Source: Verrucomicrobiota bacterium (lineage in GTDB: Bacteria > Verrucomicrobiota > Verrucomicrobiia > Palsa-1439). Taken from it: a DNA stretch of 64,000 nucleotides. Below the pieces are notes generated by a model, which saw only the letters and a list, made by a program, of their open reading frames with translations, was not told the origin of the DNA and searched no databases. Shown one piece after another: positions 1 through 25,273 of the stretch; positions within the stretch are counted from its first letter, which is position 1; every line of letters begins with the position of its first letter. A program made the position numbers and the translations under genes. The stretch is taken from assembly GCA_016871575.1 (NCBI GenBank), contig VHCW01000007.1:19616-83615 (forward strand), given 5' to 3'.

Positions 1-2575
1 CAAAACCGTAGGTCGCGTCCTTGTCCATGACCATGATCTGGCCCGACGGCACGCGATTGCCCATCGCCGGCCACTGGCCCCAGCCCGACTTCATCGCGTC
101 GCCAAAAATCCAGTACGTGCGATGCCACCAATCGCCGTCGAGGAACCCCGCCGCGCTGTGCAGGTGCGGCACGGCTTTCTTGAGCAACTGACCGTCGAGA
201 CCGAAACTCTCGTGCCGCATGAACACCAGTTCGCCATCGCAGGAAAGCACGTCATTGAGGCGGCCGTTCAAGCCAACGCCGCCGCGGTCGTCCACGACCG
301 TCCGCGAGAGTTCCTTGCCGGTCCGCGCGTCGAGCCGGCAGAGCACGATGCCGCCATCGAGGAACGACGACCGGCCCGCCGCGCAGAAGACAACGCCATC
401 CTTCACCAACACACTGCCGTGCACCGGCCACGGCGATTCGAGTTGGCCGTAGGCCATGATGCGCTGGTCTGCCGGCGCGGCACGGAACCGCCACGCGAGC
501 CGGCCATCGGTCGCGCTCAGGCAATAGACCCGGCCGTCGGTGCTGCCGAACAACACGCGACCTTCGAACACCGTCGGTGGCGAATCCACGTGCCCGCCCG
601 CCGTGAACCGCCACAACTCTTTTCCGCTGGCCGCATCGAGCGCGCAGACTTCGCGCGTCTCCGTCGCTGCGACGAACAACCTGCCGCCGGCGATGGCCGG
701 CGCGGTGAGTTTCCCGCCGAGTTTCGTCTGCCACGCTTCCGCCAGCGAAGCCGGCACGGCAGCGGAAGTGGAACCGCTCCGCACAATGTCGCCACGATAA
801 GTTGGCCAATCAGAGGTTTGAGATTGTTGATTTGCGATAACGGCGGGACCTTGTTCCAAACGCTCTCCGCTCTCCACGATCGTTCGCGCCGGCGCGAGCG
901 CGTTGAAGCTGTTGAGCTTCGATTGGATGAAACAGGCACAGGCGTGTGGAGGGACGTAGAGCAGGCCGTTGGCGGGCATCACGCCGTATTGGCAGGCGCC
1001 GCGCACCCAATGATTCGCGATGGCCTTGCCGGTGTTGACGTCAACGAACTCCGCGCCGGCGCGGCCGGTGATGAGATAGCGGTCAGTCGCCTTGTTGCGA
1101 TAACACCGATGATGTCCCATGCCCACGGCATAAAACTCCTGATCGCGCGGGCGCGTCTTGCGGACTTCGCCGGTGAGAAGGTCGCGGCCTTGCGTGATGC
1201 CGGGGTCGCTGGCTTTGACGAGATCGCCGCTCCACACGGTCCCACCCGTCACCAACAAATCCACCGGCGAATTGTAGCCTTCGCGCGCCGGTGCGCTCCA
1301 GAGCCGCTGGCCGGTCTTGGCGTTGAACGCGATCATCTCGCCCTTCGGCGCGAGGCCGCCGGCGCTGTTGACCGACCAACTGAGTGCGCCCTCGTCGCCG
1401 GCGGCGCGGTCGGCGGAGAGCACAACGTCGCCGCTCACCACCAACGTCGGCGCGGTCCAGCTTGGCCGCTTCGGAGTCAACGGACGCGCGGCCTTCCAAA
1501 TCTCCTTTCCGGTCGCTGCGTCGGCGCAGATGACCGACTTGAGGTCCTCGAAGAACACGCGGTTGCCCGCCGCGGCCAGCGCCGTCGGCATCAGGTCGGT
1601 TCCGGTCTTGTTCCAGAGCGTCTCGCCGGAATCGGCGCGCACGGCGAGCAAAGTTTTCTTCGGCGCCGGCACGCTGTAAATCGGCCAGAAATTCCATTTG
1701 TCCGTCGCGGCCCTGGCGAGGCGCGCCTCCTCGTCAGCGCTGGTCGGTTCTGCGGTCACGACGAACAGCACGCCGTCGTGGCAGATAAATTCCGTCGCGT
1801 TGACAGTCTGCGAATACGTCCGCAACGTTTTGCCGGTCACGGCGTCGAGCGCACAGACCGGTTTGCCGTAGCCGAGCGTGACATAGACGCGGTCGCCGAC
1901 CGCGACGAGCCGCCGCGCCAGTTCCGCCGGGCCGGCGCGGAAACCGCGGAGGTGATATTGCCAGCTTTCGATGGGCAGCTTCCAGAACTGGATGCCGTTG
2001 AAAGCGTCGCGCGCGATGAGAAACCATTTCGGCGTCAACGCCACGGAGGCGGTCGGCGCTTCGTCCACGACGTAGAAGATGCGTCCCTTTGCCGTGACCA
2101 CAGCGCTGATGGTGGAGAGGTGATCGTGGCTGCGCGCCCATTTCGGCTCGGCGACCCACTGCAGATGTTGCGGCGGCCCGACGAGCGTGTCGTGCGACAC
2201 GGCGTTGTTGCCGGGACTGTGGAGGTAGTGCGTCCAGTCGTCCATCTCCTTCGGCCAGGGCTTGACGATCTTTTTTCCGCCGATGAGCGCGACGCCGCCC
2301 GGCACGAGGACGCGCAACGCTTCAGCTACCGGAACATTTCCGGAACTTTCGGCGACGAGCAGGTTCACGAGATTGTCAACGTACGGCAACCGTCCGCCAC
2401 GGCATTCGCCGAGGTTGTCCACGACGAAGCCGTCTTTCGCGCGCAGCTCGCCGCGACCGATGTGGACGACGAGGCCGCCCTTGATGCCGGTGGATTGCAG
2501 AATGTCTTTTGCGTTGTTGGCGGTTGTCTGTGCGGCAAGCAGCAGAACGACGGCACACACTCGAAGTATCATCAT
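1..2575 (-). CDS. Paralog P1 (3' end cut by window edge) of the secreted methyltransferase-fold + PQQ/BamB-like beta-propeller family
   Basis: Missing from the ORF track, presumably because it has no stop codon inside the window. Hand translation of the minus strand from ATG 2575..2573 gives MMILRVCAVVLLLAAQTTANNAKDILQSTGIKGGLVVHIGRGELRAKDGFVVDNLGEC... At the window edge it reads ...NRVPSGQIMVMDKDATYGF. Both ends are colinear with the full-length paralogs. The track lists no interrupted minus-strand ORFs in this frame. The start forms an ATGA overlap with the P2 stop (2572..2574). Confidence 0.85.
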   Translation of the reverse strand, partial: MMILRVCAVVLLLAAQTTANNAKDILQSTGIKGGLVVHIGRGELRAKDGFVVDNLGECRGGRLPYVDNLVNLLVAESSGNVPVAEALRVLVPGGVALIGGKKIVKPWPKEMDDWTHYLHSPGNNAVSHDTLVGPPQHLQWVAEPKWARSHDHLSTISAVVTAKGRIFYVVDEAPTASVALTPKWFLIARDAFNGIQFWKLPIESWQYHLRGFRAGPAELARRLVAVGDRVYVTLGYGKPVCALDAVTGKTLRTYSQTVNATEFICHDGVLFVVTAEPTSADEEARLARAATDKWNFWPIYSVPAPKKTLLAVRADSGETLWNKTGTDLMPTALAAAGNRVFFEDLKSVICADAATGKEIWKAARPLTPKRPSWTAPTLVVSGDVVLSADRAAGDEGALSWSVNSAGGLAPKGEMIAFNAKTGQRLWSAPAREGYNSPVDLLVTGGTVWSGDLVKASDPGITQGRDLLTGEVRKTRPRDQEFYAVGMGHHRCYRNKATDRYLITGRAGAEFVDVNTGKAIANHWVRGACQYGVMPANGLLYVPPHACACFIQSKLNSFNALAPARTIVESGERLEQGPAVIANQQSQTSDWPTYRGDIVRSGSTSAAVPASLAEAWQTKLGGKLTAPAIAGGRLFVAATETREVCALDAASGKELWRFTAGGHVDSPPTVFEGRVLFGSTDGRVYCLSATDGRLAWRFRAAPADQRIMAYGQLESPWPVHGSVLVKDGVVFCAAGRSSFLDGGIVLCRLDARTGKELSRTVVDDRGGVGLNGRLNDVLSCDGELVFMRHESFGLDGQLLKKAVPHLHSAAGFLDGDWWHRTYWIFGDAMKSGWGQWPAMGNRVPSGQIMVMDKDATYGF

Positions 2576-5500
2576 TCGGTTCCTCCAAAGCACAGAACGT
2601 TACCATCCACCGTGGCGATGTACAACCGGCCGAGCGCGGCGGACAGGCCGTCGAAAACCGGCATTGACGGCAAGGCGCACTCGGAAATCTTTTTGCCATC
2701 GGCGGCGTTGATGATTCTCAGAAAAACGCCTTTCTTGCCGTCAAACGCCGCCCGCGCTTCCGTCTCGTTTGTGAACGCCAGCAGGTCGGGATCTTTCCGG
2801 CCGAGATCAACCGGGCCGGCGACGGCCAGCCGGTCGTTGCCGAGCGCCATGGCGCGGACGATGAGCGATTGCGTGTCGGTCCAGATCGGATCGGGTTTGC
2901 CCGCAGCGGTTCGTTCCATTCCGAACAGCCGGTAGGCATCGGCCTTGTGGCCGACGGGACCGGGGGCAACTTTCTCTCGACCGTAACCGTACACACGGCG
3001 TTCGTCGAAACATAAAATCCGGCCCGCCGGAAACTGGTTGGCAGCGCTCGCCCAGCCACCCCAGCCGGCGCCGGGCATGCCTTCGCCGAGGACCCAGTAA
3101 TTGCGGACGAACCATTCTTCGCCGAGGAAACCGGTGATCGAGAAGGGACGCGGTTTCGCCGTTTCCGTCCGTTTGCCGTAGCGGTCGAACGTGAAATACT
3201 TCAAGAACACCGCATCACCGTCGCCGGAGAGGATGTCGGACGTGGTGCCTTCCATATTGAACTTGGCTTCCGTCGTGAGTTGTTCGCCGGTTTGCGGGTC
3301 GAGATGATAGAGGACGGTCTTCGACAGCTCGCGGCCCGTCGCCGGCTCGAGCCGGTAAAGCACGATGCCGCCGTCCAGATATGTCGAGCGGCCAGCGGTC
3401 GCGTAGAGCGTGTCGTTCTGCACGAGCACCGCCCCGTGAACCGGCCAGAGCGATTCAAGCTGGCCGTACGCTGCGATTAACCGTTCCGCCGGCGCGGCGC
3501 GGAATCGCCAGACCAACGCGCCATCCGCGTCACTCACACAGTAAATCCAGCCATCGGCGGAACCGAAGATGACCATGCCATTATAAATGGTCGGCGAACT
3601 GTCAATGCGTCCACCCGCGGTGAACCGCCAGATCTCCCGGCCATTTGCGGCGGCGAGGGCGTGGACCGTGTGCGCATCGGGCGCGGCCACGAACACTTTT
3701 CCGCCCGCAATCACCGGCTGCGTCAGCCGTCCGCCGAGCGAGGCCGACCATGTTTGTTTCACCGCGTCGGGAATCGCGCTGGCGACCGCGCCGCTGCGGC
3801 GCGAATCGCGGCGGTACGCGGGCCAGTCTTCCGCATTTCGGATTTCGGATTTCGGATTTCGGATTTCCGAATAGGCTGGGCCGCGTTCGAGCACCGGTTC
3901 CTTGGGGAACGGCATCGCGCCGGTCTTGTCGCGTTGCGGCGCGGCGGCGAAGAACCCGGCGACTTTGGAAGTGAGAAAACAGGCGCAGGCATTGGGCGGC
4001 GCGTAGAGAAGGCCGTTGGCCGGCATGATGCCGTACTGGCAGGTGCCGCGAATCCAACTGTTGTTGCTGAGCCAGCAACCCTTGTCGAGACTGAGCACTT
4101 CGATGCCGGATTTGCTGGTGAAGATGAACCGCCCGGTGGCCTTGTTCCGGTAGCAACGATGATGCGCCATGCCGACCTTGGGGGCCTTGGCGTTCATCGT
4201 TTTCGCTGGCGCGCCCGTCTTCAGGTCCAGCCCGTGAAACTCCGGCCCGACCCACACGACGCCGTTGATGACGAACAGGTCCGCCGGCGAGTTGTATCCT
4301 TCCTTGCTCGGCGCCGACCACAATTCCTTGCCGTCCTTCGCCGCGTACGCCCGCAACGTGCTCTTGCCTTTCCGTGGGAACCCCGGTTCGTTCCAGCCGT
4401 GGACGCCCCACGCGACCGTGCCGGCGGCTGGGGCGCCCTCAATATCAAGGTCGGCCAGCAGAATCACATCGTCGGTCGCCACCAATGTCGGCGCGGAGAA
4501 GCTCATGCGCCGCGCGGTGGTCGGGCGCGCGGTTTTCCAAACTTCTTTGCCCGACCGCGCGTCGAGACACACGATTCCGGAGGAACTCTGGTAGTACAGG
4601 CGCGACCCTTTCACCGCCAACGTCAACGGCAGGAGATATTCGTTCCGGGCAAAATCTTTTTTCCACAACGGCTTCGCCGTGGCGGCATCCAGGGCGGTGA
4701 TGAATCGGAAATTCGTCGGCGCCGGTTCGTTGCGCGTAAACAGTCCGCCGCCGGTCCGCTCCGCTTCGGATGTGCCCACGGCCAGATAGAGAATGCCGTT
4801 GTCCGCGATGATCTCTTCCGCCCGCTCGGTGCCCTTGTATTCGCACACGGTCTGGCCGGTCGCCGCATCCAACGCGAGCACCGGTCCCGCGAGGCTCGGT
4901 GTCACGTACACCCGGTCGCCGACCGCCACGAGCCGGCGCGGCAGGTGCGCCGGGCCGGAACGGAAATGGCGCAGATGATCCACCCACGAACTGATGGGAC
5001 GTTTCCACAGCAGCGTGCCGTTGAATGCGTCGCGCGCCACCAGCTTCCAGTCGCCCGTAAACCGGATGAAAGCCAGCGGCGCCTCGTCCACGATGTAGAA
5101 GATGCGCCCTTGCGCCGTGACCGCGGCGCTCATGCTGGCGAGTTCCTCGTGGCTGCGCCCCCACCGCGGCTCTGCCACCCACTGGATCGAGCGCGGAATG
5201 TCCACCACCGAATCCATCGCCACCGCGTTGTTGTCCGGCCCGTGCAGAAAATGCGTCCACTGATCAATCGTCTTCGGCCACGGTTTCACCGTCTTCTTCC
5301 CGCCGATCATCGCCACGCCGCCGGGGACGAGCACCCGCATCACTTCGTCCATTGAAACCGCGCCGGGTTTTTCCGCCACGACCAAGTTCACAAGGTTGTC
5401 CACGTACGGCAACACTCCACCGCTCCATTGCGCCACGCTGACCGGCCCGTACAAGCCGAGCGACTGAATGTGTTTGCGCGCCGCCGTCACGTCCGTGTCG

Positions 5501-5667
5501 AGTCCATGGACGAGAAAGCTGTCGTTGGCGCGCAACGCCACTGTCTGTTTCCCATCGCCGCAGCCGATGTGGACGACGAGGCCGCCCTTGACGCCGGTGT
5601 CCGCGCCGCAAAACGCCGATGCTATTGTAAGCAGAGAAATCAGGCAGGTTAGTAAGAAGGTTTTCAT
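2572..5667 (-). CDS. Paralog P2: signal peptide + class-I SAM-methyltransferase-like fold + split PQQ/BamB-like beta-propeller protein
   Basis: ORF 2572..5754. The start is trimmed to ATG 5667 (MKTFLLTCLISLLTIASAFCG, a signal-peptide-like N-terminus). Motifs seen: VVHIGCGDGKQT, LVHGLD, LPYVDNLVNLVV, MRVLVPGGVA, KPWPKTIDQWTHFLH, HHRCYRNKAT, DWPAYRRD, GGRIDSSPT, WRFRAAP, QLESLWPVHGAVLV. Confidence 0.9.
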   Translation of the reverse strand: MKTFLLTCLISLLTIASAFCGADTGVKGGLVVHIGCGDGKQTVALRANDSFLVHGLDTDVTAARKHIQSLGLYGPVSVAQWSGGVLPYVDNLVNLVVAEKPGAVSMDEVMRVLVPGGVAMIGGKKTVKPWPKTIDQWTHFLHGPDNNAVAMDSVVDIPRSIQWVAEPRWGRSHEELASMSAAVTAQGRIFYIVDEAPLAFIRFTGDWKLVARDAFNGTLLWKRPISSWVDHLRHFRSGPAHLPRRLVAVGDRVYVTPSLAGPVLALDAATGQTVCEYKGTERAEEIIADNGILYLAVGTSEAERTGGGLFTRNEPAPTNFRFITALDAATAKPLWKKDFARNEYLLPLTLAVKGSRLYYQSSSGIVCLDARSGKEVWKTARPTTARRMSFSAPTLVATDDVILLADLDIEGAPAAGTVAWGVHGWNEPGFPRKGKSTLRAYAAKDGKELWSAPSKEGYNSPADLFVINGVVWVGPEFHGLDLKTGAPAKTMNAKAPKVGMAHHRCYRNKATGRFIFTSKSGIEVLSLDKGCWLSNNSWIRGTCQYGIMPANGLLYAPPNACACFLTSKVAGFFAAAPQRDKTGAMPFPKEPVLERGPAYSEIRNPKSEIRNAEDWPAYRRDSRRSGAVASAIPDAVKQTWSASLGGRLTQPVIAGGKVFVAAPDAHTVHALAAANGREIWRFTAGGRIDSSPTIYNGMVIFGSADGWIYCVSDADGALVWRFRAAPAERLIAAYGQLESLWPVHGAVLVQNDTLYATAGRSTYLDGGIVLYRLEPATGRELSKTVLYHLDPQTGEQLTTEAKFNMEGTTSDILSGDGDAVFLKYFTFDRYGKRTETAKPRPFSITGFLGEEWFVRNYWVLGEGMPGAGWGGWASAANQFPAGRILCFDERRVYGYGREKVAPGPVGHKADAYRLFGMERTAAGKPDPIWTDTQSLIVRAMALGNDRLAVAGPVDLGRKDPDLLAFTNETEARAAFDGKKGVFLRIINAADGKKISECALPSMPVFDGLSAALGRLYIATVDGNVLCFGGTE
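3835..3869. repeat. Heptanucleotide tandem repeat (ATTTCGG)x4 plus one imperfect unit, inside the P2 inter-domain linker
   Basis: Read directly: atttcgg atttcgg atttcgg atttcgg atttccg. It encodes SEIRNPKSEIRN between ERGPAY and DWPAY. The unit is the reverse complement of the CCGAAAT/CGAAATC unit in the intergenic elements at 35485 and 37798. Confidence 0.95.
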
Positions 5668-5679
5668 GGCAGTGCGTGA

Positions 5680-5718
5680 GATTCTATCCAACACCACCGG
5701 GAAGACAAGGTTGCAGAG
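5680..5718 (-). promoter_or_regulatory. Conserved promoter-like leader upstream of P2
   Basis: The minus strand reads CTCTGCAACCTTGTCTTCCCGGTGGTGTTGGATAGAATC. It has a -35-like TTGTCT, a 16-nt spacer and a -10-like TAGAAT, with 13 nt between the -10 element and the ATG. The same block lies upstream of P3, P4 and P7. Confidence 0.4.
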
Positions 5719-5759
5719 TTTGACTGATGCAACAAAAACCGTTGAGCAGTTCACAGAGC

Positions 5760-6047: not shown

Positions 6048-9000
6048 TTACGGCTTTCCTTCCAAGCACGCAAGACTGCCGTCTTGCAATGCGATCAGTA
6101 AACGTCCGCCTGCAGCGATCAAGCCGTCGAAGACTGGCGGCACGTTCAGCGCGCTTTCGGCGAGCTTCTTGCCGTCCTTCGCTGACACGGCGACGAGCTT
6201 CGCGCCTTTCTTGCCATCGAGTGCCGCGTATGGGTCTTTCGCGTCAAGTTCGTCGGGCGGGCCAGCGACAAACAACGTGTCGCCGGCTTTGACCATCGCG
6301 CGGATCCGCACCGGCAGGAACGTCTTCCACAACGGCGGCTCCGCGCGCGTGTAGCCGATCATCTTGTCGAGACCGAACGCGGTGTTGTCGAGCTTCTCTA
6401 CGGCGCGTCCGCCGCCGCGCTCGTAATCGGATTGCGGCAACCACTCCACCGGCTTGCGCGCGCCGGTGGGGTCGCCGACGATCTGCGGCTCGTTGGAGTT
6501 CTTGTCGGCGTAGAGCAGATAACCTTCCTTGCCGGGGAAGAACATCGGGCTGTGAACGTTGCGGCGATAGTACGGCTGGACAGCGTAGGTGCGTTCGTTG
6601 TCCACGATGAGCAACTGGCCGCTCTTCGAGGATTGATTTGCCAATTGGAAACCGGGCCAGCGTTTGGCGTACATCCAGAACGCGCGGTTGTACCACGACG
6701 CGTCCAGGAAACCTGACGTCGAGAACACGTGCAGGCCGACATCCTTCTCACCCTTCACAGAAAGATCTTCCTGCTTCTCTTCCCTGAGATCGGGCGTCAG
6801 TTTCTTCTGGCGCATATAGACATAACCGCCTTCGTGGGCCAGCACGTCGGAGTTCGCGCCGGGAATATAGAACGACACCTCGCGGAACGTCTTGCCGTCG
6901 GGGAACGGGCCGGAGAGCGTTGTCTGGTGCTGCAGCTTGCCTGTCGTCGCGTCCAGCGCGTACACGCGAATGCCGCCGTCCAGATACGTCGAGCGGCCGG
7001 CGGTGCAGTAGGCCGCGCCGTCGCTGACCAGCACGCTGCCGTGGACCGGCCAGACCGATTCGAGTTGGTCGTTGACCATGATGCGACGCTCACAAGGCGC
7101 CGCGAGGAACCGCCACGCCAGCGCGCCGTCGTCCGCGCGCAGGCAATAGACGTAGCCGTCCGCGCTGCCGAACAGAACGAGTCCACCGAGAATGGTCGGC
7201 GGCGAATCCACGCGTCCGCCGGCGACGAACGTCCACGCTGTCTTGCCGGTCTTCATGTCCAGCGCGTGGATCGTGTGCGATTCGCGCGCGGCCGCAAACA
7301 CGCGTCCGCCGGCGACGACCGGCTGCGTCAATCCGGCGCCGATCTTGACGCGCCAGGTTTCGGTCAACGTGGTTCCCACCTTGGTGGGCGTCGAGCCGTG
7401 GCGGGCCGGATTGTGACGGAAGGTTGGCCAGTCGTCGGGGTTTCTGCTTTCTGCTTTCTGCTTTCTGCTTTCTGCTCCGTAGGCCGGACCTTTTTGCAGT
7501 CGCTGATTGTCGGGCACCGGCTGGATCTTTGTGGCCGGGCCGATGGCGGTGAAGCCCAGTTTTTTCGCGCCGGGGTCGCAGAAACATTGGTCGGGCGGCA
7601 CGTAGATCATGCCGTTGGCGGGCATGATGCCGAGTTTGCAGGCGCCGCGCACGAAGTTGTGCTGCGAATGGTTGGAGCCGACGACATCCAGGAACTCCAA
7701 GCCTTCCATCGAACTGATGATGAATCGCTCGGTGGCCTTGTTCCGATAGCAGCGATGATGATGCTCCGGGCTGCGCAAGTTCTCGACGAAAAGACGTTTT
7801 CGTTCCTCGCCGGTCCGCAGGTCGTAGCCGATGGCGAGGACGTGGGGGCTTTTGACGTTGGGCGTGCGGTCTTCGTCCACGCCGATCATGTCCGGCCAGA
7901 CGATGCCGCCGATGACGTATAATCCCTCGCTGCCGAGGCCGCGCGCCAGCGGCGCTTCCTTTTTCCAAAGCAACTTGCCGGTGGCGCCATCGCGCGCCTC
8001 CAAGCCATTGTTGCCGAGCACCGCCAACACGCCGTCACACGCCACCAATGTTCGCACTCCGCCGCTTTCGACACCGGTTTGCCACCGGTCAGCGCCCGTT
8101 TTCAAGTCGAGCGCCGTCAGCTTGCCGCCGCCGAAGAACACGATGCGGCCTCCTTCAATCGCCAGCGTGATTCCCTGCACCGCGGGAACGTTCTTGCGCC
8201 AGAGCGCCTTCCCCGTGGCGCCTTCCACGGCGATCAATACGCCCGGCGGACCGCTCTCCTGCGCTTTGCCTTTCCCCTTGCCTTTTTGTCTTGGCAGTTC
8301 GGCGTCGGGTTTTCCTTCCTGCGAATAGACCAACGCAATGCCATCGGCAACGACGATTTGCCGGACCGGCGCGGTGTCCGGGACAGTCGCGACCGTTTTG
8401 CCGGTGGCCGCATCGAGAATCGCCAACGGCGCGCGGTAGCTGAGCGTCGCGTAGAGGCGGTCGCCGTCCACGACGAGCCGGCGCTGGTTTTCATCGGGCA
8501 CAACCGTCCGGCCACCGGTGATTGTCGTCCAGTCGGTGTTGGCGAATCTATCCCCGGCCCACTCCGTCCAGCCCCATTTCTCAATGGGCCGGCGCCAGAG
8601 TTCTTTGCCGTTGAACGCGTCCCGGCACAGCAGCGCCCAGCGCTCCGGCAAGCGCTGGTCGGTGATGCCGATCAATCCCTCGTCGAAAATGTAGAACACG
8701 CGCCCGCCGCCGCAGACCATCGCCTGGAAACCCGACGGCGTTTCGTGGCTGCGCAACCACAGCGGCGGCGCCATCCATTGCAACGAGCGCGGCGCGCCGA
8801 CGCGCGTGTCGCGGGCGACAGCGTTGTTGTTCGCGCTGTGCAGGAAATGCGTCCACTCATCAATGTCCTTCGGGCGCGGCTTGACCGTCTTCTTGCCGGC
8901 GATGAGCGCGACGCCGCCCGGCGCGAGCACGCGCATCAGCTCGTCCATCGAGACGCCGCTGGGCTTGTCCGCGACAATCAAATTCACCAAGTTCTCCGCG

Positions 9001-9344: not shown

Positions 9345-9584
9345 ATGAAAACATCTTCCCGAAAAGGTTTTTCCTTGATTGAACTGATGGCGGTGGTTCT
9401 CACCATCGCTGTATTCGTAATCCCGCAGGCAATTATTACAGCTACCGATATCCCGGCGCAAACAACAAGGGGGGATACGATTTGTCGGTCCGCAGCGAGC
9501 TGGGGAAAACGTATGACAACTGGAAGCGATGAACTGACAAATCCGGTGCCGCCAATTATTCTTTGGCAATCTCAACGGCGCTGA
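9345..9584 (+). CDS. Small ORF with a prepilin-type N-terminal cleavage/methylation motif (possibly a gene fragment)
   Basis: MKTSSRKGFSLIELMAVVLTIAVFV matches the type IV pilin-like motif (K-G-F-S-L-I-E followed by a hydrophobic helix). The ORF is only 79 aa, lies in a locally AT-richer stretch, and has no recognisable C-terminal domain. Confidence 0.4.
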   Translation: MKTSSRKGFSLIELMAVVLTIAVFVIPQAIITATDIPAQTTRGDTICRSAASWGKRMTTGSDELTNPVPPIILWQSQRR

Positions 9585-9867: not shown

Positions 9868-9891
9868 GGTGTAAGGTGTAAGGGGTTGTAA

Positions 9892-13557: not shown

Positions 13558-13596
13558 GATTCTATCCGACGCCGCCGGGAAGTCGAGGCCGCAAAG
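13558..13596 (-). promoter_or_regulatory. Conserved promoter-like leader upstream of P4
   Basis: The minus strand reads CTTTGCGGCCTCGACTTCCCGGCGGCGTCGGATAGAATC (TCGACT, 16-nt spacer, TAGAAT), with 13 nt between the -10 element and the ATG. Confidence 0.4.
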
Positions 13597-17350: not shown

Positions 17351-20300
17351 TTGTTTTCTCCGTAGCAAAGCACCGTGCCGTCTGACATGGCGACGTAAAG
17401 CCTGCCGTTCGCGGCGGCCATGCCGTCGAAGACGGGCGGAGCGGACAGCTTGATTTCCGACACCTTGCTGCCGTCCTTCGTCGAAACCAACCACAACACT
17501 GCGCCGAGCCGTCCCTCAAACGAACCGTACGGATCGGTGGACGGCACAATGTCCGGCGGCCCGGCCAGCGCAAGATGTTCGCCGGCGACAACCATTGCGC
17601 GGACGCGGACGGGAATCTTCCCCTGCCAGCGCGGCGGTTTCTGGCGCTGGAACATGCCGATTCTGCCTTCGGTCCCTTCGCTTGATTCGTTGGCGTTGTC
17701 GTCGGCGATGAGGTCGTAGCCGTCCCTGCCGGCGGTGAAGTGCGGGCTGCGGCTGAATTGCGTGTTGAAATATTTCACCGCGTACGTGGTGGCGTTGTCG
17801 AATACAAGCATCTGTCCCTGCTTCGGCGCGCCGATGGCAAATTGCGCGCCCGGCCAGTGCTCGGAATACATCCAGTAGAGCCGGTCGAAACCGGAATCAT
17901 CGAGAAACCCGCCGGTAGCCAACAGGCGGCGATCGGTCTTGCGCACGCCCGAAGCGGCGAGCATCGGCGCGTCGAGCTTGTTGAGTTTCAGGTCGAACAC
18001 GTATTGGAGCATGAAGAGCTTGTCGCCGCTGCACACGAGGATGTCGCTGCTCGTCCCCTCCATCGCATGCGGATGACGTTCCTTCGCCGGGACAGTCCAC
18101 GGGCCGTCGAGGTGTTGCTGGTAGAGTTGCTTGCCGGTGGCCACGTCGAGTCCGTAGAGATAAATCCCGCCATCGAGGAACGACGACCGTCCTGCCGAGC
18201 AGTACGCCACGTTGTCTTTCACCAACACGCTGCCGTGCACCGGCCACGCCGATTCGAGGTGGCCGTACGAGACAATGATCTTCTTGCGAGGCGCCGCCTC
18301 GAAACGCCACGCGAGTTCGCCATCGGCGGCGTTGAGACAATAGACCGCGCCGTCGGCGCAACCGAACAGCACGCGTCCTTGCGCGATGGTCGGCGGCGAA
18401 TCCACCGGCCCTCCGGCGATGTAGCTCCAACGTTCCCCTCCGGTCTCGGCGTCGAGACAATAGACGGCGTGCGAGTCTTTTCCGCCGACGTAGAGCGATT
18501 TGCCCGCGATCACCGGCGCAGTGATGCGTCCGGGAAGTTTCGCCGACCAAGCTTGGTTCAGGTTGGCGGGCAGACTTGTTCCGGCGTTTCCGCTGCGCGC
18601 GTTGTCTTTGCGGTACGTTGGCCAATCGTTGCTGGTGAGTGGTGAGTGGTGAGTGGTGGAGTAGGCTGGTCCCCGTTCCAATCGCTCAGTGGTCGTGGCT
18701 TGTTGTTCGCCGCTTGTCGTGAACGCGTTGAAGCCGTTCATCTGGACGCCGGGCTGGCAGCGGCACGGCGTGGGCGGGACGTAAAGGAAACCGTTCGCCG
18801 GAACAAAACCGGAACGGCAGACCGTGCGGCACCAATCGTTGCCCGAATGATTCTTGTCCGTCCGAATGTCCACAAACTCAACGCCGCGCTTCGACCAGAT
18901 GAGATAATCCTCGGTCGCCTTCGAGCGGTAACAGCGCGGATGATGCCCGGCGGTGAACAACTCGCCCACATCAATTGACTTCGCGATTTCTCCGGTCTGG
19001 AGATTCAATCCCTTGGTCGTCATCGTGCCGGCCCACGCGAGGCCGTTGGCGACCATCAAGTCCGGCACGCCGCGAAAGCTCGAGCCGATCACCTCGCTCG
19101 TCCGCCACAACAACTTGCCGTCGGCAAGCGAGTGGACGTTCAGGCCGTTGACCACGAACAACACCTTGTCGCCTGCCATCAACAGCGACGCGCCCATCTG
19201 GGCGTCGTTGTTCTGCCGAGAGTTCACCGGCGTCTTCCACCGCTCCTGGCCAGTCTGCAAATCAAGCGCCGTCAATTCTTCCGCGTTCAAAAAACAGACG
19301 CCCCTCTTCGTTGCCGCCAGCGATAACGGAAGCATCCGTCCCCCCGGTTTCTTCCAAAGCGTTTTCCCGGAACTCAACTCGATGGCCACGACGTTCGCTT
19401 CCGGGAATTGACGGGCTGGCGCGGCGGCTTTCTTGACTTTGCCCTTGCCCTTGCCGGCGGCAGTTGCCGGTTGGGGACGTGGTCCGTCGGGAATCACGCA
19501 AACTCGCGCCACGAGAATGCCGTCGCATACGACGATCTCCTCGGTGGTGGCGGTATCGGCAAACTCGCGCAACGTCTTGCCGGTGACGGCGTCCAGTTCA
19601 CTCACCGGCGCGCGATAGCCCATCGTCATATAAACGCGGTCGCCCACGGCCACGACGCGCCGCGTCACCGTCGGCGGCAACGCCCACATTTCTTCTTTCG
19701 GAATGGCGAGGAACGGAATCCGTCCCGCCTCCCAAAAGCTGGGGCCCCATTTCGGAATCGGACGCTTCCAAAGCTGAACGCCATTGAAAGCGTCTTGTGC
19801 AATCAACGACCACTTGTCCGGGAACCGTCGTTCCGCCGGCGGCAACGGCGTGTCGTGAACGCCCGTCGGCCCTTCGTCCTGAATGCTGAAAATCCGCCCG
19901 CCGGCCGTGACCACTACGGCGACGCTGATGTCCACTTCGTGACTCCGGCACCAACGCGGCGCGCTGACCCATTGCAGTTGACGCGGCGGCCCAACTTTCT
20001 TGTCCTGCGAGACCGGGTTGCCGGAAGCGTTGTGCAAATAGTGCGACCACTCGTCAATTTCCGGCGGACGCGGCTTGACGATTTTTTGACCGCCGACGAG
20101 CGCGGTGCCGTTCGGCACGAGCACGCGGAGCGCCTCGTCTTTTGGGATCTGACTCCCTTCGTTGACGATGAGCGTGTTCACCAGATTATCGGTGTACGGA
20201 AGGCGGCTGCCACTGAGAATGTCGGCGAAGACGGAGCAACGGCGAAGCGCGTTGCAGGTCTTCGCGTCCGGAGCAAGACAGTGGACGAGGTTGCCCTGCT

Positions 20301-20415
20301 TGGCGAGCGCGCGTGCTTGGTCGGCGTCCTTTGCGCCCACGATAACGTAGAGGCCGCCAGCGTGCGCACTCGACACGAAAACGAACAACAGGACGGCAAG
20401 AATTCTCATTTGCAT
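17347..20415 (-). CDS. Paralog P6: signal peptide + degenerate methyltransferase-like fold + split beta-propeller
   Basis: ORF 17347..20415 (MQMRILAVLLFVFVSSAHAGGLYVIVGAKDADQ). An alternative start at ATG 20409 would form an ATGA overlap with the upstream stop at 20406..20408. Motifs seen: GHHPRCYRSKAT, NDWPTYRKD, WRFEAAP, HLESAWPVHGSVLV. Confidence 0.9.
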   Translation of the reverse strand: MQMRILAVLLFVFVSSAHAGGLYVIVGAKDADQARALAKQGNLVHCLAPDAKTCNALRRCSVFADILSGSRLPYTDNLVNTLIVNEGSQIPKDEALRVLVPNGTALVGGQKIVKPRPPEIDEWSHYLHNASGNPVSQDKKVGPPRQLQWVSAPRWCRSHEVDISVAVVVTAGGRIFSIQDEGPTGVHDTPLPPAERRFPDKWSLIAQDAFNGVQLWKRPIPKWGPSFWEAGRIPFLAIPKEEMWALPPTVTRRVVAVGDRVYMTMGYRAPVSELDAVTGKTLREFADTATTEEIVVCDGILVARVCVIPDGPRPQPATAAGKGKGKVKKAAAPARQFPEANVVAIELSSGKTLWKKPGGRMLPLSLAATKRGVCFLNAEELTALDLQTGQERWKTPVNSRQNNDAQMGASLLMAGDKVLFVVNGLNVHSLADGKLLWRTSEVIGSSFRGVPDLMVANGLAWAGTMTTKGLNLQTGEIAKSIDVGELFTAGHHPRCYRSKATEDYLIWSKRGVEFVDIRTDKNHSGNDWCRTVCRSGFVPANGFLYVPPTPCRCQPGVQMNGFNAFTTSGEQQATTTERLERGPAYSTTHHSPLTSNDWPTYRKDNARSGNAGTSLPANLNQAWSAKLPGRITAPVIAGKSLYVGGKDSHAVYCLDAETGGERWSYIAGGPVDSPPTIAQGRVLFGCADGAVYCLNAADGELAWRFEAAPRKKIIVSYGHLESAWPVHGSVLVKDNVAYCSAGRSSFLDGGIYLYGLDVATGKQLYQQHLDGPWTVPAKERHPHAMEGTSSDILVCSGDKLFMLQYVFDLKLNKLDAPMLAASGVRKTDRRLLATGGFLDDSGFDRLYWMYSEHWPGAQFAIGAPKQGQMLVFDNATTYAVKYFNTQFSRSPHFTAGRDGYDLIADDNANESSEGTEGRIGMFQRQKPPRWQGKIPVRVRAMVVAGEHLALAGPPDIVPSTDPYGSFEGRLGAVLWLVSTKDGSKVSEIKLSAPPVFDGMAAANGRLYVAMSDGTVLCYGENK
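18634..18661. repeat. Heptanucleotide tandem repeat (GGTGAGT)x3 plus one imperfect unit in the P6 linker
   Basis: Read directly: ggtgagt ggtgagt ggtgagt ggtggag. It encodes STTHHSPLTS. The unit and peptide are the same as in P5. Confidence 0.9.
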
Positions 20416-21398
20416 TGTTGGGCGATCTCCTCTACCGACAAGGCGGCGTCGAAATGTTTCACTTCGTCAATCACGCCCTCGAACGCGTCGGTGAGTTCGA
20501 TGGCGCTGTTGCCGACATCAAAGCCAATCTCCATTCCCTGTCCGCCGTTGCTCGTCATCAGGCCGCCGGTTTTGGCCGACGCGGCGAGCTTGCCGTTGAC
20601 GTACAACTCGATGCGGTCGTTCGCGACGACGCCGGCCAAGTGGCTCCAGCCAGCGCCGATCTTCTCGCGGCCGGTAACGATGTCGGCGCCTTCTTTCGAG
20701 CGACGAATCCCGAACTTGGGAAAGCCGTCCTTGAGATAAAGCGAGTAGCCGCAGAACGCGCCGCCGCGCGCGACGACCACGCCGGTCGGCGCATCGGCCT
20801 TGACCCACGCCATGATCGTGAACGGCGTCTTGGCAACCGATGGTTTTTGTGTGCGGCCCAGCTCGATGTACTTGCCCTTGCCGAAACGCAACGCCGCGCC
20901 GACTTTGCCCTCGGCGACCGTGCAGCCCTTGATCTCGCCGTCGGTGGCCTTGCCGCTCACATCTTTTGCGACTTTCGTGTTTTTGTCGTCGAAACTCCAA
21001 TGCGCCGACAGCACCGGCGGCTTGGTCGGCGGAACGATCTTGATCGCGCCGTACTGCACCAACAGCCACGTGATGTGCGGAACGTCGGCGTCCTTTTCCT
21101 TCAACATTGCCTTGAGCGGCTCGATGATCTTGGCATCGTGAAGCTCTCGCAACGCCCACGCGGCTTGGTCGCGCACAACCCACTCCGGGTCGCGGAGCGC
21201 GCGCAACAAAGCGTCGGCGGCCCGCGCGTCCTTGACCTCGCCGAGCGCGTAGGCGGCATAGAACCGGTGGTTCTTGTCCTTGTGACCGAGCGCCTCGATC
21301 AGTTTCGGCACATCGCGCACCGAGGCCAACGCCCGCACCCCCTGTTCCTGCGCGGCGCACACGCCGGCCAGCAGCGCGAACAACAAACACCACGTCAT
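20406..21398 (-). CDS. Secreted HEAT-repeat + LamG/concanavalin-A-like lectin domain protein
   Basis: 330 aa with a signal peptide (MTWCLLFALLAGVCAAQ). HEAT-like repeats: AAYALGEVKDARAADALLRALRDPEWVVRDQAAWALREL. LamG-like C-terminus: FTIMAWVKADAPTG...GYSLYLKDGFPKFGI...WSHLAGVVANDRIELYVNGKL...FEGVIDEVKHF. There is an ATGA overlap with the P7 stop. Confidence 0.85.
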   Translation of the reverse strand: MTWCLLFALLAGVCAAQEQGVRALASVRDVPKLIEALGHKDKNHRFYAAYALGEVKDARAADALLRALRDPEWVVRDQAAWALRELHDAKIIEPLKAMLKEKDADVPHITWLLVQYGAIKIVPPTKPPVLSAHWSFDDKNTKVAKDVSGKATDGEIKGCTVAEGKVGAALRFGKGKYIELGRTQKPSVAKTPFTIMAWVKADAPTGVVVARGGAFCGYSLYLKDGFPKFGIRRSKEGADIVTGREKIGAGWSHLAGVVANDRIELYVNGKLAASAKTGGLMTSNGGQGMEIGFDVGNSAIELTDAFEGVIDEVKHFDAALSVEEIAQQCK

Positions 21399-24300
21399 TT
21401 GATTTCCACCGGGCTGAATTCGGTCACGGCGTTCATCACGTAGTAGCCGACGTGGGTGATCTGTTTCAACGGCGCGGTCAGCGGCGCTTCAATGGCCTTG
21501 CCGGGCAGGGTCATTCTAACTTTCTTGGCCGCGAAATCCACGGTCACCTCGACGGCAATGGATTTACCGGCTTCACTGACAAACTCGTCCATTGTGGTGC
21601 CGGTTTTGGCGGCGCCTTGGATGATGTAGCATTTCTTGGTGCGCAGACGGACACCGCACTTGATGAGTTTGTCTTCCGCGGCGCCGTCGCCAAACACGAG
21701 GAACCCGGTCTGCAGTTTGCCTCCGGTGTTGGGTTGAATCTTCAGCGTGAATATCACCGGCTTGGTCAGCGGCGCGGCGAGCTGCTTGAGGGCGAGACCG
21801 TTTTCGCCTTCGTCCGCGGTGAGTTTGTAACCAAGGCCACCGCTGGTCACCGTGACGGCGGAGAGAACATGGAAGTCGGGATGAGTCCGTTGTTCCGGCT
21901 TTGTTCCGGTTTTGGGCGCGGTTTTTGGTGCGGCCTTGGCGGCGCCTTTTCCTTTGGACGTCGTCACGGGTGGAATTTCGCCGGTGGGTTTGTCGGCGTC
22001 GCCGCGCGGCGTTACCACCTGATCCGTCGCGGCGGGCAACGGCTGGCTGCCGCCCGCACCGAAGCAGTGAACCTTGCCGTCCAGCGTCGAGAGATAGACT
22101 TGGCCATACGCCGTGGCGAGGCCGTCGAAAACCGGCGCGGCCTTGAGCCGGTAGGTTGCGATCTTCTTGCCATCCTCAACGCCGATGGCGGCGAGCAACG
22201 CGCCACGCTTGCCTTCGAGCGCGGCTTCCTGCTCGGCGAGTTTCTTCTTCACCTCAAGATCGCCGAGTGTATTACTGAGTTTCTCCTCGTCCACCAGATC
22301 GGGTACGCCGGCGACGAACAATGTCTTGTCAGCCAACGCCATCGAGGTGACTTGCATGGAGAGTTCATTCGACCACTCGTGGGCGAAACGCGTCAGTGGT
22401 CTTTGATTCAAGGTGCCTTTTGGTTTGCCATCGGCCTTCTTCGGTCGCTTTGGCGGCTCTGAGCCCATCCGGACCTGCTCCGGATCTCTTGGCGCAGAGA
22501 AGAGGTGATGCTCGATCGGCGTGGTCCAACGATAATACTGCCAAAGCCGGCCGAAGCCGTACACGTTCTTGTCGTCGAAGACAAGCATCCGGCCCGACGG
22601 CGTGACGCGGCCGGCTTGATAATAGCCGCCGGCGCCGGAGGCGAACGCGCGGCCAAACGTCCAATACGTGCGATGCCACATCGTGTCGTCGAGGAAACCG
22701 GTCGGGCTGAACAAATGCCGGTCATCGCCTTGCTGGTCCTTCACGTCGTTGACACCGATCACCCTCCGTTTGCCGTCCATGTCCATCACCAGCGTTCGCA
22801 TATAGACGTTCTTGCCGTCGCTGGAGAGGATGTCCGCCAACGCGGTCGGCATGTTCAAGCCCTTGATATGCGATTGCAGGTTCGTCTTGGTGATCGGATC
22901 GTTGTCGTCCATGACGATCTCGGTGAGTTTCTTGCCGGTCTTCGGGTCGAGACGGAATATCCGCAAGCCGCCGTCGAGGAACATCGAGCGGCCGGCGACG
23001 CAGTAGAGCGTGTTGCTCTGCACGAGCACGCTGCCGCTGACGGGCCAGACGCTTTCGAGTTGCTCGAAACAGAAGTGCCGCCGGTCTTCCGGCGCGGCGC
23101 GGAATCGCCACGCGAACGCGCCGTCGGTGGCGCGCAGGCAATAGACGTAGCCGTCGGTGCCGCCGAACAACACGCGGCCCTCCCAGATCGTGGGCGGGGA
23201 ATCAATGCGTCCGCCGGCGGTGTAGCTCCAGAGTTTCCGGCCGGTGCTCGCATCAAGCGAGACGATCTCGTGGCGGTCTATCACGGCGACGAACAACAGT
23301 CCGCCGGCGATGACGGGCGAGGTGATCTTGCCGCCGAGGTCCATTTCCCAGGTGCTCTTCAGTTCGGTGGCGGGCACCGTCGTCTTCACGTAACCGCTGC
23401 GGGCCGCGTTGCCGCGATAGGTGGGCCAATCGGAATCGGACATTTCAAAAGTGAAATCGGAAACATCGCTTTTGATGAGTCGGCCCTCGTCGGACACTTC
23501 GCGTTTTGGCTGCCATAACTTCGTCATCGGCGCGAGCGCGTTGAAGCCGGAGAGTTTTGCGTCGAGGTAACAGGCGCACGGGTTGGGCGCGTTGTAGATC
23601 ATGCCGTTGGCGGGCATGAAACCGTAGAGGCATGCACCGCGGACCCAATGATGACAGGTCCAGTGCGCGTTGGCGATGTCCACGAACTCGATGCCGGTGC
23701 GCGAGAAGAACAGGAAGTTTTCAGTGGCTTTCTGCCGGTAGCAGCGTTGATGGAACCAGTGGGTCTTCACATCCGGCGGAAACTCTTTCACGACCTTGCC
23801 GGTGTGAATGTCGCGGCCGGTCGTGTTGCCCGTGCCGGAGCCTTGAGCCGTGTCGCCATACCAGACGACGCCCTTGATCACGAGGAGGTCCTTCGGGCTG
23901 CCGGCGTGGCCTTGGGGCGGGTGCTCGGCTTCCCAGAGCCGTTTGCCGGTGCGCGCGGAGAGCGCGTACATCGTTGTGCCTTCGCCCTTGAGCTTCTTCG
24001 CGTCGCCGCTGTAGCCGGAGAACAACAATACGTCGTCATACACGACCAACGTCGGCGTGGACGAGGCTTTCAACGTCCGCTGGCACGGCGTCTCGGTGGC
24101 CCACACCGGCGCGCCGGTCTTGCGGTTGAGGCAGACAACCTTGACGCCGTCGTGGAGATAGACCGATTGGTTGTCGGCGGCCAATGTCGCCGGCATCAGG
24201 TTGGTGATCTTCTTCCACAACAATCTTCCGCTGCTTACCTCGATGGCCACGACGGTGCGCGGCAGATCGCCCCACTGGGGGCCGGTCACGTCGGCGCGGA

Positions 24301-25273
24301 TGTCGGCCAACGTCGCAAACACCTTCTTCGGGTCGCTGCGAAGCGGTTGTTTGTCCGCGACCGCGAGGAACAACACGCCGTCGGAGAGAATGATCTCCTC
24401 CGTCACGCCCGTGTTGTCGAACGTGCGCAGCGTCTTGCCGGTGGCGGCGTCCAGCTCGGTCAGCGGCGCGTCAATGTTCAATGTCGCGTAGAGTTTGTCA
24501 CCCATCGCCACGATCCGGCGCGGCAACATGCCGGGGCCGCTCTTGAGCGGATACATGTGCTCGTGCCAGCGCTCGATGGGGCGCCTCCAGAGCAACGTGC
24601 CGTTGAACGAGTCACGGGCGTACAAGAACCACTGCGGCGGAATGAAGATCGAGGCGCGCGGCGCTTCATCGAAGATGTAGAAGTTCCGCCCGTTGGCCGA
24701 CACCATCGCGCTGGCGACGGACATGTGATCATGATGCCGGGAGTAACGCGGCCCCGCGAGCCACTGCATCCGCGCCAGAAAACCAATCTCCGTGTCGTGC
24801 GCGACGGCGTTGCCGCTTGCGTCGTGCAGGTAATGCGTCCACTCATCAATGCTCTTCGAACGCGGCTTCACGATTTTCTGCCCGCCAACAATCGCGACTC
24901 CGTTCGGCACAAGCACGCGCATGATCTCGTCGTTCGAGACGCGGGCGCTGTCGCTGACGACGATGAGGTTCACGAAGTTCTCGATGTACGGCAGCCGCTT
25001 CCCGTCCCACTGCGCGGCTGACACCGTGCCATAGAGGCCGAGCGATTGAATGTGCTTGCGAGCGGCGGTCACGTCTGCGTCGAGGCCGTGCACGAGGTAA
25101 CTGTTGTTCGCGCGCAACGCCGCCGTCAACTTCCCGTCGCCGCAACCGACATGGACGACCAGGCCACCCTTGACGCCGGAGGTTTGGAGGATTTCCGTGG
25201 CCTGCTCCGCGCCGCGAAGGAGCGGCGCTTGTGCGACCAGGAAGACGAGGGTGAATCGCAAAAAAGTTCTCAT
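21395..25273 (-). CDS. Paralog P7: same architecture plus a ~220-aa C-terminal extension (Pro/Lys-rich linker + beta-rich domain)
   Basis: ORF 21395..25342. The start is trimmed to ATG 25273 (MRTFLRFTLVFLVAQAPLLRGAEQATEILQTSGVKGGLVVHVGCGDGKLT). The family C-terminus ...LDGKVHCFGAGG is followed by ...KGKGAAKAAPKTAPKTGTKPEQ... and a domain ending in ...VGYYVMNAVTEFSPVEIK. Confidence 0.9.
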   Translation of the reverse strand: MRTFLRFTLVFLVAQAPLLRGAEQATEILQTSGVKGGLVVHVGCGDGKLTAALRANNSYLVHGLDADVTAARKHIQSLGLYGTVSAAQWDGKRLPYIENFVNLIVVSDSARVSNDEIMRVLVPNGVAIVGGQKIVKPRSKSIDEWTHYLHDASGNAVAHDTEIGFLARMQWLAGPRYSRHHDHMSVASAMVSANGRNFYIFDEAPRASIFIPPQWFLYARDSFNGTLLWRRPIERWHEHMYPLKSGPGMLPRRIVAMGDKLYATLNIDAPLTELDAATGKTLRTFDNTGVTEEIILSDGVLFLAVADKQPLRSDPKKVFATLADIRADVTGPQWGDLPRTVVAIEVSSGRLLWKKITNLMPATLAADNQSVYLHDGVKVVCLNRKTGAPVWATETPCQRTLKASSTPTLVVYDDVLLFSGYSGDAKKLKGEGTTMYALSARTGKRLWEAEHPPQGHAGSPKDLLVIKGVVWYGDTAQGSGTGNTTGRDIHTGKVVKEFPPDVKTHWFHQRCYRQKATENFLFFSRTGIEFVDIANAHWTCHHWVRGACLYGFMPANGMIYNAPNPCACYLDAKLSGFNALAPMTKLWQPKREVSDEGRLIKSDVSDFTFEMSDSDWPTYRGNAARSGYVKTTVPATELKSTWEMDLGGKITSPVIAGGLLFVAVIDRHEIVSLDASTGRKLWSYTAGGRIDSPPTIWEGRVLFGGTDGYVYCLRATDGAFAWRFRAAPEDRRHFCFEQLESVWPVSGSVLVQSNTLYCVAGRSMFLDGGLRIFRLDPKTGKKLTEIVMDDNDPITKTNLQSHIKGLNMPTALADILSSDGKNVYMRTLVMDMDGKRRVIGVNDVKDQQGDDRHLFSPTGFLDDTMWHRTYWTFGRAFASGAGGYYQAGRVTPSGRMLVFDDKNVYGFGRLWQYYRWTTPIEHHLFSAPRDPEQVRMGSEPPKRPKKADGKPKGTLNQRPLTRFAHEWSNELSMQVTSMALADKTLFVAGVPDLVDEEKLSNTLGDLEVKKKLAEQEAALEGKRGALLAAIGVEDGKKIATYRLKAAPVFDGLATAYGQVYLSTLDGKVHCFGAGGSQPLPAATDQVVTPRGDADKPTGEIPPVTTSKGKGAAKAAPKTAPKTGTKPEQRTHPDFHVLSAVTVTSGGLGYKLTADEGENGLALKQLAAPLTKPVIFTLKIQPNTGGKLQTGFLVFGDGAAEDKLIKCGVRLRTKKCYIIQGAAKTGTTMDEFVSEAGKSIAVEVTVDFAAKKVRMTLPGKAIEAPLTAPLKQITHVGYYVMNAVTEFSPVEIK

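Follow-up and report, generated by a model that had tools for sequence, protein, structure and literature searches.

The stretch of Verrucomicrobiota DNA analysed here, 64 kb in full and called the window below, carries at positions 1–25273 seven minus-strand paralogues (P1–P7) of a large, predicted-exported protein and, embedded among them, one gene whose product combines HEAT repeats with a laminin-G-like domain (the HEAT-LamG gene). An earlier note, made from the sequence alone, had described these genes as an array of an unusual secreted protein that joins a methyltransferase fold to a split β-propeller. All seven reading frames exist where the note had placed them, and a profile hidden Markov model (HMM) of the family, run against the entire window, recovers the same seven copies and no more; one extra match, to the gene of a 414-residue BamB-like protein at 29596–30840, is marginal and confined to the blades. 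Pairwise alignment of P1–P7 gives amino-acid identities of 39–51% across 760–1018 aligned residues, and the best nucleotide self-matches of the window (84% over 195 nucleotides and 80% over 452 nucleotides) both lie in the region encoding the N-terminus. On account of these values the copies are old paralogues, and assembly duplication, which the note had named as a possible source of them, is ruled out. The two self-matches, 5147–5598 with 8743–9194 and 5217–5411 with 13137–13331, fall in the coding DNA that runs from the Rossmann domain to the KPWP motif; this DNA is 80–84% identical, compared with about 65–70% elsewhere, and the raised identity could be due to gene conversion or to stronger constraint on this part of the protein.

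P2 (2572–5667, on the minus strand like every feature of the array) is a complete, canonical member of 1031 residues with a signal peptide. P1 (1–2575), coupled to P2 by an ATGA start/stop overlap, also begins with a signal peptide and stays open for 858 codons without a stop; it covers positions 4–903 of the 1055 positions of the family profile, with its C-terminus beyond the window edge, and is absent from the list of open reading frames (ORFs) because it runs off that edge. P3 (6048–9287) is complete at 1079 residues. The most divergent member is P6 (17347–20415), 39–44% identical to the other copies, which starts at 20415 or, if it is ATGA-coupled to the HEAT-LamG gene, at 20409. P7 (21395–25273) is a long member of 1292 residues in which a low-complexity Pro/Lys-rich linker is followed by a C-terminal β-sandwich. 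The HEAT-LamG gene itself (20406–21398) encodes 330 residues, predicted to be exported, in which Pfam recognizes HEAT_2 and Laminin_G_3 as the note had proposed, and it lies inside the sub-operon extending from P7 to P5. All four ATGA overlaps to which the note had drawn attention are present (P2/P1, P6/P5, P7/HEAT-LamG and HEAT-LamG/P6).

Signal-peptide-like N-termini were found in six of the seven genes, the exception being P5 (14315–17350), which is ATGA-coupled to P6 and starts directly at strand β1 of the Rossmann domain (MTFLALILGGLVVHLGCGDG). An alternative upstream start that would supply P5 with a signal peptide was ruled out: the in-frame extension is Arg-rich nonsense that overlaps the conserved C-terminus of P6, so that P5 has no signal peptide. 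The single architecture that the note had ascribed to all of the genes, signal peptide included, consequently does not hold for every copy, since P4 lacks the tail, P5 the signal peptide and P1, P4 and P6 the glycine-rich loop of the Rossmann domain. Every shared motif that it had listed is visible in the alignment of the paralogues (GCGDG, LPYVDNLVN, KPWP..IDEWTHYLH, HHRCYRNKAT, C..G.MPANG.LY.PP..C.C, DWPT[FY]R, AGRS..LDGG and the PPVFDG tail), and the linker between the propeller parts is as variable as described. Most of these motifs, in an alignment of 52 sequences of the family, show either no variation across phyla or conservation of at least 90%.

P4 (10885–13545) is a truncated member of 886 residues that ends inside a mobile element, its coverage of the family profile stopping at position 912 of 1055. 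The element (9892–10906, minus strand) is 1015 bp long, of the IS200/Y1 type and REP-associated-like (RAYT-like), and is inserted in P4. Its tyrosine transposase gene (9896–10888) scores 45.1 bits with Pfam Y1_Tnp (threshold 23) and 59.7 bits with NCBIfam NF047646 (REP_Tyr_transpos; cut-off 80). The termini are 16-nucleotide inverted repeats (GGGGTCAACTCTGGAC, one mismatch) set inside 42-nucleotide imperfect arms, and in the window these terminal repeats occur only as those of this one copy of the element. The element provides the stop codon of P4, and beyond it lies an orphan C-terminal, lectin-like remnant (9556–9891) that matches the corresponding domain of P7 at 41% identity (E = 1e-21), which shows P4 to have been formerly a long form of the P7 kind. 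The insertion, together with the loss of about 290 codons, deprived P4 of its final blades and its conserved tail.

A scan for σ70-type promoters detected a hexamer pair (TCGACT or TTGTCT, a spacing of 16 nucleotides and TAGAAT) 8–14 nucleotides before the ATG of P7, P4 and P2. The three promoter-like elements, all on the minus strand, are located at 25280–25304 (8 nucleotides before the P7 ATG, heading the P7/HEAT-LamG/P6/P5 unit), at 13558–13582 (ahead of P4) and at 5680–5704 (14 nucleotides before the P2 ATG, with TTGTCT as the −35 hexamer, a 16-nucleotide spacer and TAGAAT as the −10 hexamer). A conserved upstream block of about 40 nucleotides (TTGCAACCTYGWCTTCCCGGCGGTGTTGGATAGAATC) is shared by these sites, and a degenerate copy of it near 9300 precedes P3. 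The 25-mer of the element has three matches with at most two mismatches in the window, where none is expected by chance. The block also stands before two family genes (2121–2140 and 14057–14076) of L049, a contig from a Verrucomicrobiota metagenome-assembled genome (MAG) that is discussed below; it was not found in the other 83 loci and is lineage-specific. Its conservation exceeds that of the coding DNA, which is about 65–70% identical between paralogues and has a synonymous divergence (dS) of about 0.6–0.7 between species. The sharing of this conserved block supports four co-regulated transcription units, namely P7/HEAT-LamG/P6/P5, P4, P3 and P2/P1, within which the follower genes would be translationally coupled through the ATGA overlaps. 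We infer that the element acts as a promoter, and its closeness to the ATG suggests that the leaders may be very short or absent.

L049 is syntenic with the window at 80–84% nucleotide identity and contains orthologues of P7, the HEAT-LamG gene, P5, the 414-residue BamB-like gene and the SLT transglycosylase gene. In place of P6 and P5 (window 14349–20415), L049 has a single gene (10123–13221) whose first approximately 128 codons are P6-like and whose remainder is P5-like, with the switch inside the conserved LPYVDNLVN...VKPWP region, and this chimaera points to unequal homologous recombination between neighbouring paralogues. An extra family copy (2059–5310) takes the place of the GHL10-like and 713-residue genes of the window, and L049 has no transposase element. 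For the orthologues, the ratio of nonsynonymous to synonymous substitution (dN/dS; Nei–Gojobori) is 0.22 for P7 and 0.20 for P5; for the HEAT-LamG gene (90% identical) it is 0.11, and together with the BamB-like gene and the SLT gene the range is 0.11–0.15. No 100-codon window of the orthologue comparison exceeds 0.53. Furthermore, P1, P2, P3 and P7 have homologues in other genomes, other phyla included, at 52–83% identity, above that of any paralogue in the array; that no closer relatives were seen for P4–P6 is uninformative, because the loci had been chosen by similarity to P2.

These values bear on the suggestion in the earlier note that the scale of local amplification reflects diversifying selection, in which case the proteins would be variable surface components that serve phage or predator evasion or adhesion. 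Seven copies in 25 kb, the variable linkers and loops, a copy number that differs from that of L049 and the 80–84% nucleotide identity of the N-terminal region in some pairs, which could reflect gene conversion, would all fit such a recent burst. It is contradicted by the low dN/dS and by the closer homologues outside the array, and further by the mere 39–51% identity among the paralogues and the invariance of the motifs across phyla; the suggestion is largely refuted, and we consider it very improbable. The copies are better described, from these comparisons, as ancient subfamilies that have been brought or kept together under purifying selection.

To examine the architecture, P2 was modelled with AlphaFold2 (AF2) using the family alignment, giving a mean predicted local distance difference test score (pLDDT) of 87 and a predicted template-modelling score (pTM) of 0.90. 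In this model residues 2–20 form a low-confidence N-terminal helix, read as the signal peptide, and residues 29–127 form a β-α-β Rossmann unit. A profile of the N-domain (residues 22–140) matches the methyltransferase 3dlc in the PDB with an E value of 2.7e-8 and about 15 others, 4pne, 7v6h, 3bus and METTL27 among them, with E values to 5e-5, in alignments that span motif I, the β2 Asp and the LPxxD..h(D/N)hV and RVLxPGG motifs. The Rossmann module recognized in the earlier note does match a methyltransferase fold, and its homology to class I S-adenosylmethionine (SAM)-dependent methyltransferases is supported by these alignments. The corresponding Pfam matches (Methyltransf_25 and Methyltransf_11) are weak: in a scan of P2–P7 only P7 lies above the gathering threshold (Methyltransf_11, 24.7 versus 21.2), P2, P3 and P5 lie below it and P4 and P6 give no match, and several homologues elsewhere pass, such as P0142 with 42 bits for Methyltransf_25. 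The GCGDG loop and the β2 Asp (HGLD) are present in P2, P3, P5 and P7. The acidic residue of motif I, (D/E)xGxGxG, is replaced by an invariant His; P1 and P4 have a 22-residue deletion in the domain and no GxGxG loop, and P6 carries VGAKDAD where others carry GCGDG. By crude regular-expression counts GxGxG occurs in 139 of 188 family members, as against 188 of 188 for CxC and 173 of 188 for HxRCYR. The modelled domain is small, about 100 residues comprising β1 to β5 and a short hairpin, and no substrate lid is apparent.

One way to read this domain is that the proteins are genuine SAM-dependent methyltransferases whose two propellers provide a platform for recognizing the substrate, which might be a polymer or a protein at the membrane or surface. 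The homology of the N-domain favours this, as do the many members that pass Pfam thresholds and the near invariance of GCGDG and the β2 Asp in canonical members. Catalysis is nevertheless doubtful for a minimal unit of this size in which His stands for the motif-I acid, in proteins whose signal peptides and exported-enzyme fusions would place them outside the cytoplasm, where SAM is not known to be available; and three of the seven copies here (P1, P4 and P6), like about a quarter of the family, have lost the loop while the propeller motifs are kept. We consider methyltransferase activity quite unlikely, and more probably the domain has a structural or ligand-binding role.

The remainder of the P2 model consists of propeller blades. 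Residues ∼158–595 contain approximately 36 strands and residues 636–1029 approximately 30, separated by a low-confidence linker at ∼600–630. Foldseek aligns the model with single eight-bladed propellers over about 450–520 columns and with proteins of the tandem-WD type, Utp21 among them, over about 960. Because of these strand counts and alignment lengths the model indicates two complete tandem propellers, and the split single propeller of the earlier note is not supported. Its description of the blades as BamB/PQQ-like is borne out by PQQ_2 (PF13360), which scores 103–129 bits in P2–P7 against a gathering threshold of 27.6 (E = 1e-30 to 1e-37). The best-conserved signature of the family, HHRCYRxKA with three more invariant Cys residues, is carried by the final blades of propeller 1. 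The top structural match is tetrathionate hydrolase (E = 5e-16, TMt 0.60–0.64). Searched with the whole P2 model, Foldseek returned generic propellers only, with no full-length analogue and no functional clue, and a sequence-profile search of the PDB with the full family returned only blades (BamB, the designed Cake and Bagel proteins and PQQ dehydrogenases) and one methyltransferase.

PQQ-dependent dehydrogenases (quinoproteins) are suggested by weak blade-level matches to the Pfam PQQ models and TIGR03075 and by Foldseek matches to PQQ alcohol dehydrogenases. The scores for TIGR03075 are 41–54 bits against a cut-off of 480, however, and that for TIGR03074 is 20 against 833; the PQQ alcohol dehydrogenases superpose with a TMt of ∼0.3 and a root-mean-square deviation above 20 Å; and the best structural match, tetrathionate hydrolase, is free of PQQ. 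Vicinal Cys-Cys, a trait of type I alcohol and methanol dehydrogenases, was sought in all of the paralogues and found in none. Membership of the quinoproteins is accordingly rejected, and this identity has next to no chance of being correct. As tetrathionate hydrolase is itself a PQQ-free propeller enzyme, a propeller of this type can be an enzyme without PQQ.

The proteins might alternatively be BamB-like scaffolds or chaperones for protein interactions in the periplasm or outer membrane, serving envelope biogenesis or large surface complexes and with no connection to glycans. The blades are nearest to those of BamB/PQQ_2, the PDB matches to BamB have a TMt of ∼0.6, interaction between proteins is a classic role of both HEAT repeats and propellers, and the SLT transglycosylase and the 414-residue BamB-like gene lie nearby. 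BamB is a lipoprotein of about 390 residues with one eight-bladed propeller, whereas the complete copies are far larger (1011–1292 residues), have two propellers and a Rossmann domain and show no canonical lipobox at their N-termini; the BamB equivalog TIGR03300 gives 68–79 bits against a cut-off of 285 and NF008351 47–57 against 423. The fusion partners described below are of carbohydrate type (sulfatase, SASA, RicinB, F5/8C, LamG and CBM66-like domains) and not of envelope biogenesis, and many copies and subfamilies per genome are unlike a housekeeping assembly factor. BamB itself is thereby rejected, and a BamB-like scaffolding role seems to us unlikely.

The architecture, which the earlier note had called unusual, proves to be widespread. 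Of 8,000 candidates examined in a word-indexed search of 90%-identity clusters, 7,593 scored E ≤ 1e-5, the 120 best being 60–83% identical to P2 over the full length. When 1.84 billion 50%-identity representatives were searched exhaustively with a profile, 10,258 proteins were recovered at E ≤ 1e-30, of which even the 150th-best match is full length (973 bits). A scan of one genome per species confirmed at least 593 relatives, all in MAGs; the groups among the relatives listed include Planctomycetota, Phycisphaerae, Verrucomicrobiota, Kiritimatiellia, Lentisphaerota, Armatimonadota and others, so that the same fusion extends across the Planctomycetota–Verrucomicrobiota–Chlamydiota (PVC) group and beyond it and is among the more common families of large, predicted-exported proteins in bacteria of the PVC type. 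Where relatives are named in the databases, they appear as 'PQQ-binding-like beta-propeller repeat protein', 'BamB' or 'methyltransferase domain-containing protein'; the family is already abundant there under generic names, and neither Pfam nor NCBIfam was found to hold a specific model for it. Among 79 loci fetched with 10 kb flanks and picked by similarity to P2, 27 have two or more copies in arrays of two to four, with three or four tandem copies at several (L006, L009, L014, L023, L040, L049 and L061). This architecture and the arrangement in tandem are both usual for the family, and a cluster of seven copies is at the high end of what flanks of 10 kb show.

A link to glycans comes from the domains attached to the family core and from its genomic neighbours. 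The last 168 residues of P7 (∼1125–1292; window 21398–21901) are conserved in at least eight other loci and have no match in Pfam. Modelled alone, this C-terminal domain is a β-sandwich (pLDDT 91) whose best PDB matches are the carbohydrate-binding module CBM66, with template-modelling scores of 0.73–0.76, and also galectins and legume lectins. Laminin_G_3 is fused to or inserted in five of the 13 longer representatives scanned (P0133, P0143, P0172, P0178 and P0235), and other homologues carry RicinB (P0252), F5/8C (P0231), HEAT_2 (P0171), PKD domains or PATR together with Big_9/cadherin surface repeats. Fusions to enzymes also occur, to a SASA carbohydrate esterase in P0124 and to a sulfatase in P0010 (on three contigs). 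Since both domains of the HEAT-LamG protein are fused to family cores elsewhere, this protein is a candidate partner of P7 or P6 by the Rosetta-stone argument.

When 545 neighbouring ORFs were clustered, sulfatase was the commonest neighbour, with 23 genes at 16 of the 79 loci, and it was over-represented at directly adjacent positions (11/138 versus 12/407; odds ratio 2.85, p = 0.024). Next came Gfo/Idh/MocA proteins, SASA esterases, LamG proteins, the 414-residue BamB-like protein, the 3-keto-disaccharide hydrolase and the SSF symporter. One homologue that is 79% identical to P2 lies in a same-strand run of sulfatase, sulfatase, FGE-sulfatase, family member and SASA. At locus L081 a gene beside the P2 homologue P0007 (6451–9855) encodes 1134 residues that combine a hydrazine-synthase-α-like propeller with an FGE-sulfatase domain, and shares its operon with two sulfatases, the family member and a SASA esterase.

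From these associations, which all point in one direction, we propose with moderate confidence that the members of the array are extracytoplasmic glycan-binding or glycan-processing modules of a large, uncharacterized and predicted-exported family, a reading that agrees with the surface or periplasmic binding-type role suggested in the earlier note. A canonical member consists of a Sec-type signal peptide, a methyltransferase-like Rossmann domain of about 100 residues and two tandem BamB/PQQ-type propellers, its export being inferred from the signal peptides and from the fusions to sulfatase, SASA and PATR/Big_9. Such modules may cooperate with sulfatases, esterases and lectin-like partners, which here would be the HEAT-LamG protein and the CBM66-like domain of P7, with complex and often sulfated polysaccharides probably divided among the subfamilies. 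The array itself is maintained by purifying selection and reshaped by unequal recombination and by the transposase insertion that truncated P4. Several points weigh against this proposal. The window contains no sulfatase, and its sole carbohydrate-related neighbour is a weak GHL10 match; the sulfatase adjacency is only modestly enriched (p = 0.024), in 79 loci biased by their choice through P2 similarity, and sulfatases are very abundant in PVC genomes in any case. Lectin-like and LamG folds also serve protein–protein binding. The two-propeller assignment depends on strand counts and Foldseek alignment lengths from a predicted model; the Gly-rich loop and the β2 Asp are well conserved in most members, and the Rossmann domain may therefore still bind a ligand, possibly SAM; and a full-text search of the literature found nothing on the family.

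Whether the core binds or converts its ligand is a separate matter. The decoration with CBM-type domains and the many densely set invariant residues (His, Arg, Tyr, Lys, Asp and Glu) lead us to lean towards an enzyme, although the core has no similarity to any known catalytic site. In its most specific form, which we put forward only tentatively and regard as rather improbable, the family would be a new class of extracytoplasmic carbohydrate-active enzyme of PVC-type bacteria, with a catalytic centre formed by the invariant His/Arg/Tyr/Lys and four-Cys signature where propeller 1 ends, a repurposed Rossmann domain that binds substrate or cofactor, and arrays that act as specificity panels for sulfated glycans.

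The rest of the window has features of its own. A divergent trio on the plus strand (25330–30840) encodes a GHL10-like protein (699 residues, weak PF02638), a 713-residue protein without a Pfam match, weak relatives of which occur in L032 and L058, and the 414-residue BamB/PQQ_2 single-propeller protein, which is again found beside family genes in L049, L032, L065 and L031. At 33543–45442 (plus strand) there is an aerotolerance-type operon of MoxR AAA+, DUF58 and BatA-VWA genes followed by genes for proteins of 811 and 1511 residues, both without a Pfam match; the latter is membrane-anchored, Ala/Gln/Glu-rich and coiled-coil-like, and the region has a strong AT skew of 0.26–0.28. At 61218–63452 (plus strand) lies an unusually long (744-residue) homologue of dihydroxy-acid/6-phosphogluconate dehydratases, with an insert of about 180 residues between its N- and C-domains that gives weak SnoaL-like matches.

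The array is an unusually large example of a family that is widespread yet functionally dark, built from known folds and neither categorically new nor rare. PVC bacteria, together with Armatimonadota and related groups, play a major part in degrading recalcitrant sulfated polysaccharides, and their exported proteome has mostly generic annotation. Sus-like systems are, to our knowledge, absent from these phyla, and a class of carbohydrate-active enzymes of the kind outlined above would, if real, fill part of that gap. A role for the family would annotate thousands of genes and could reveal a new glycan-binding or catalytic scaffold together with an unusual way of employing the methyltransferase fold outside the cytoplasm, and the array draws attention to this predicted-exported methyltransferase-like domain. 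It also offers a compact test set, with five intact, diverged subfamilies, a putative natural partner protein and natural variants from which the SAM loop, signal peptide or C-terminal tail is missing.

Several known systems bear comparison with the family. With class I methyltransferases (Methyltransf_11/25; 3dlc and 4pne) it shares the β1/αA/β2 Rossmann topology, GxGxG and the Asp at the end of β2 in canonical members and the LP(Y/F)xDxxh(D/N)hV and RVLxPGG motifs; it differs in the truncation of the domain to about 100 residues, in the invariant His at the motif-I acid, in the predicted export of the protein and in the absence of the loop from P1, P4 and P6 in this array and from some 25% of family members. 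With BamB and other PQQ_2 proteins it has in common the A-x-D-x-x-T-G-x-x-x-W blade pattern, which runs through both propellers, an extracytoplasmic location, predicted in its own case, and, for BamB, a structural similarity at a TMt of ∼0.6, but BamB is a protein of some 390 rather than 1000 residues, has neither the second propeller nor the N-terminal Rossmann domain, carries the lipobox that is missing here, and lacks the invariant HHRCYRxKA / C..C.C signature and the many paralogous subfamilies per genome that characterize this family. Tetrathionate hydrolase (6l8a and 7cqy) likewise possesses a PQQ-free eight-bladed propeller that aligns over about 500 columns; it is only 16% identical, has a single propeller and no Rossmann domain, and its sulfur chemistry has no support in the family. 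Modular carbohydrate-active enzymes (CAZymes) and surface glycan binders, such as the CBM66 of Bacillus subtilis levanase and proteins bearing CBM13 or CBM32, resemble the family in the decoration of a core with LamG, ricin-B, F5/8C and CBM66-like domains, in fusions to and operons with sulfatases and SASA esterases, and in the many substrate-type subfamilies per genome; the core of the present family, in contrast, lies outside the CAZy and Pfam families of known activity, has no recognized catalytic residues and could be a binder.

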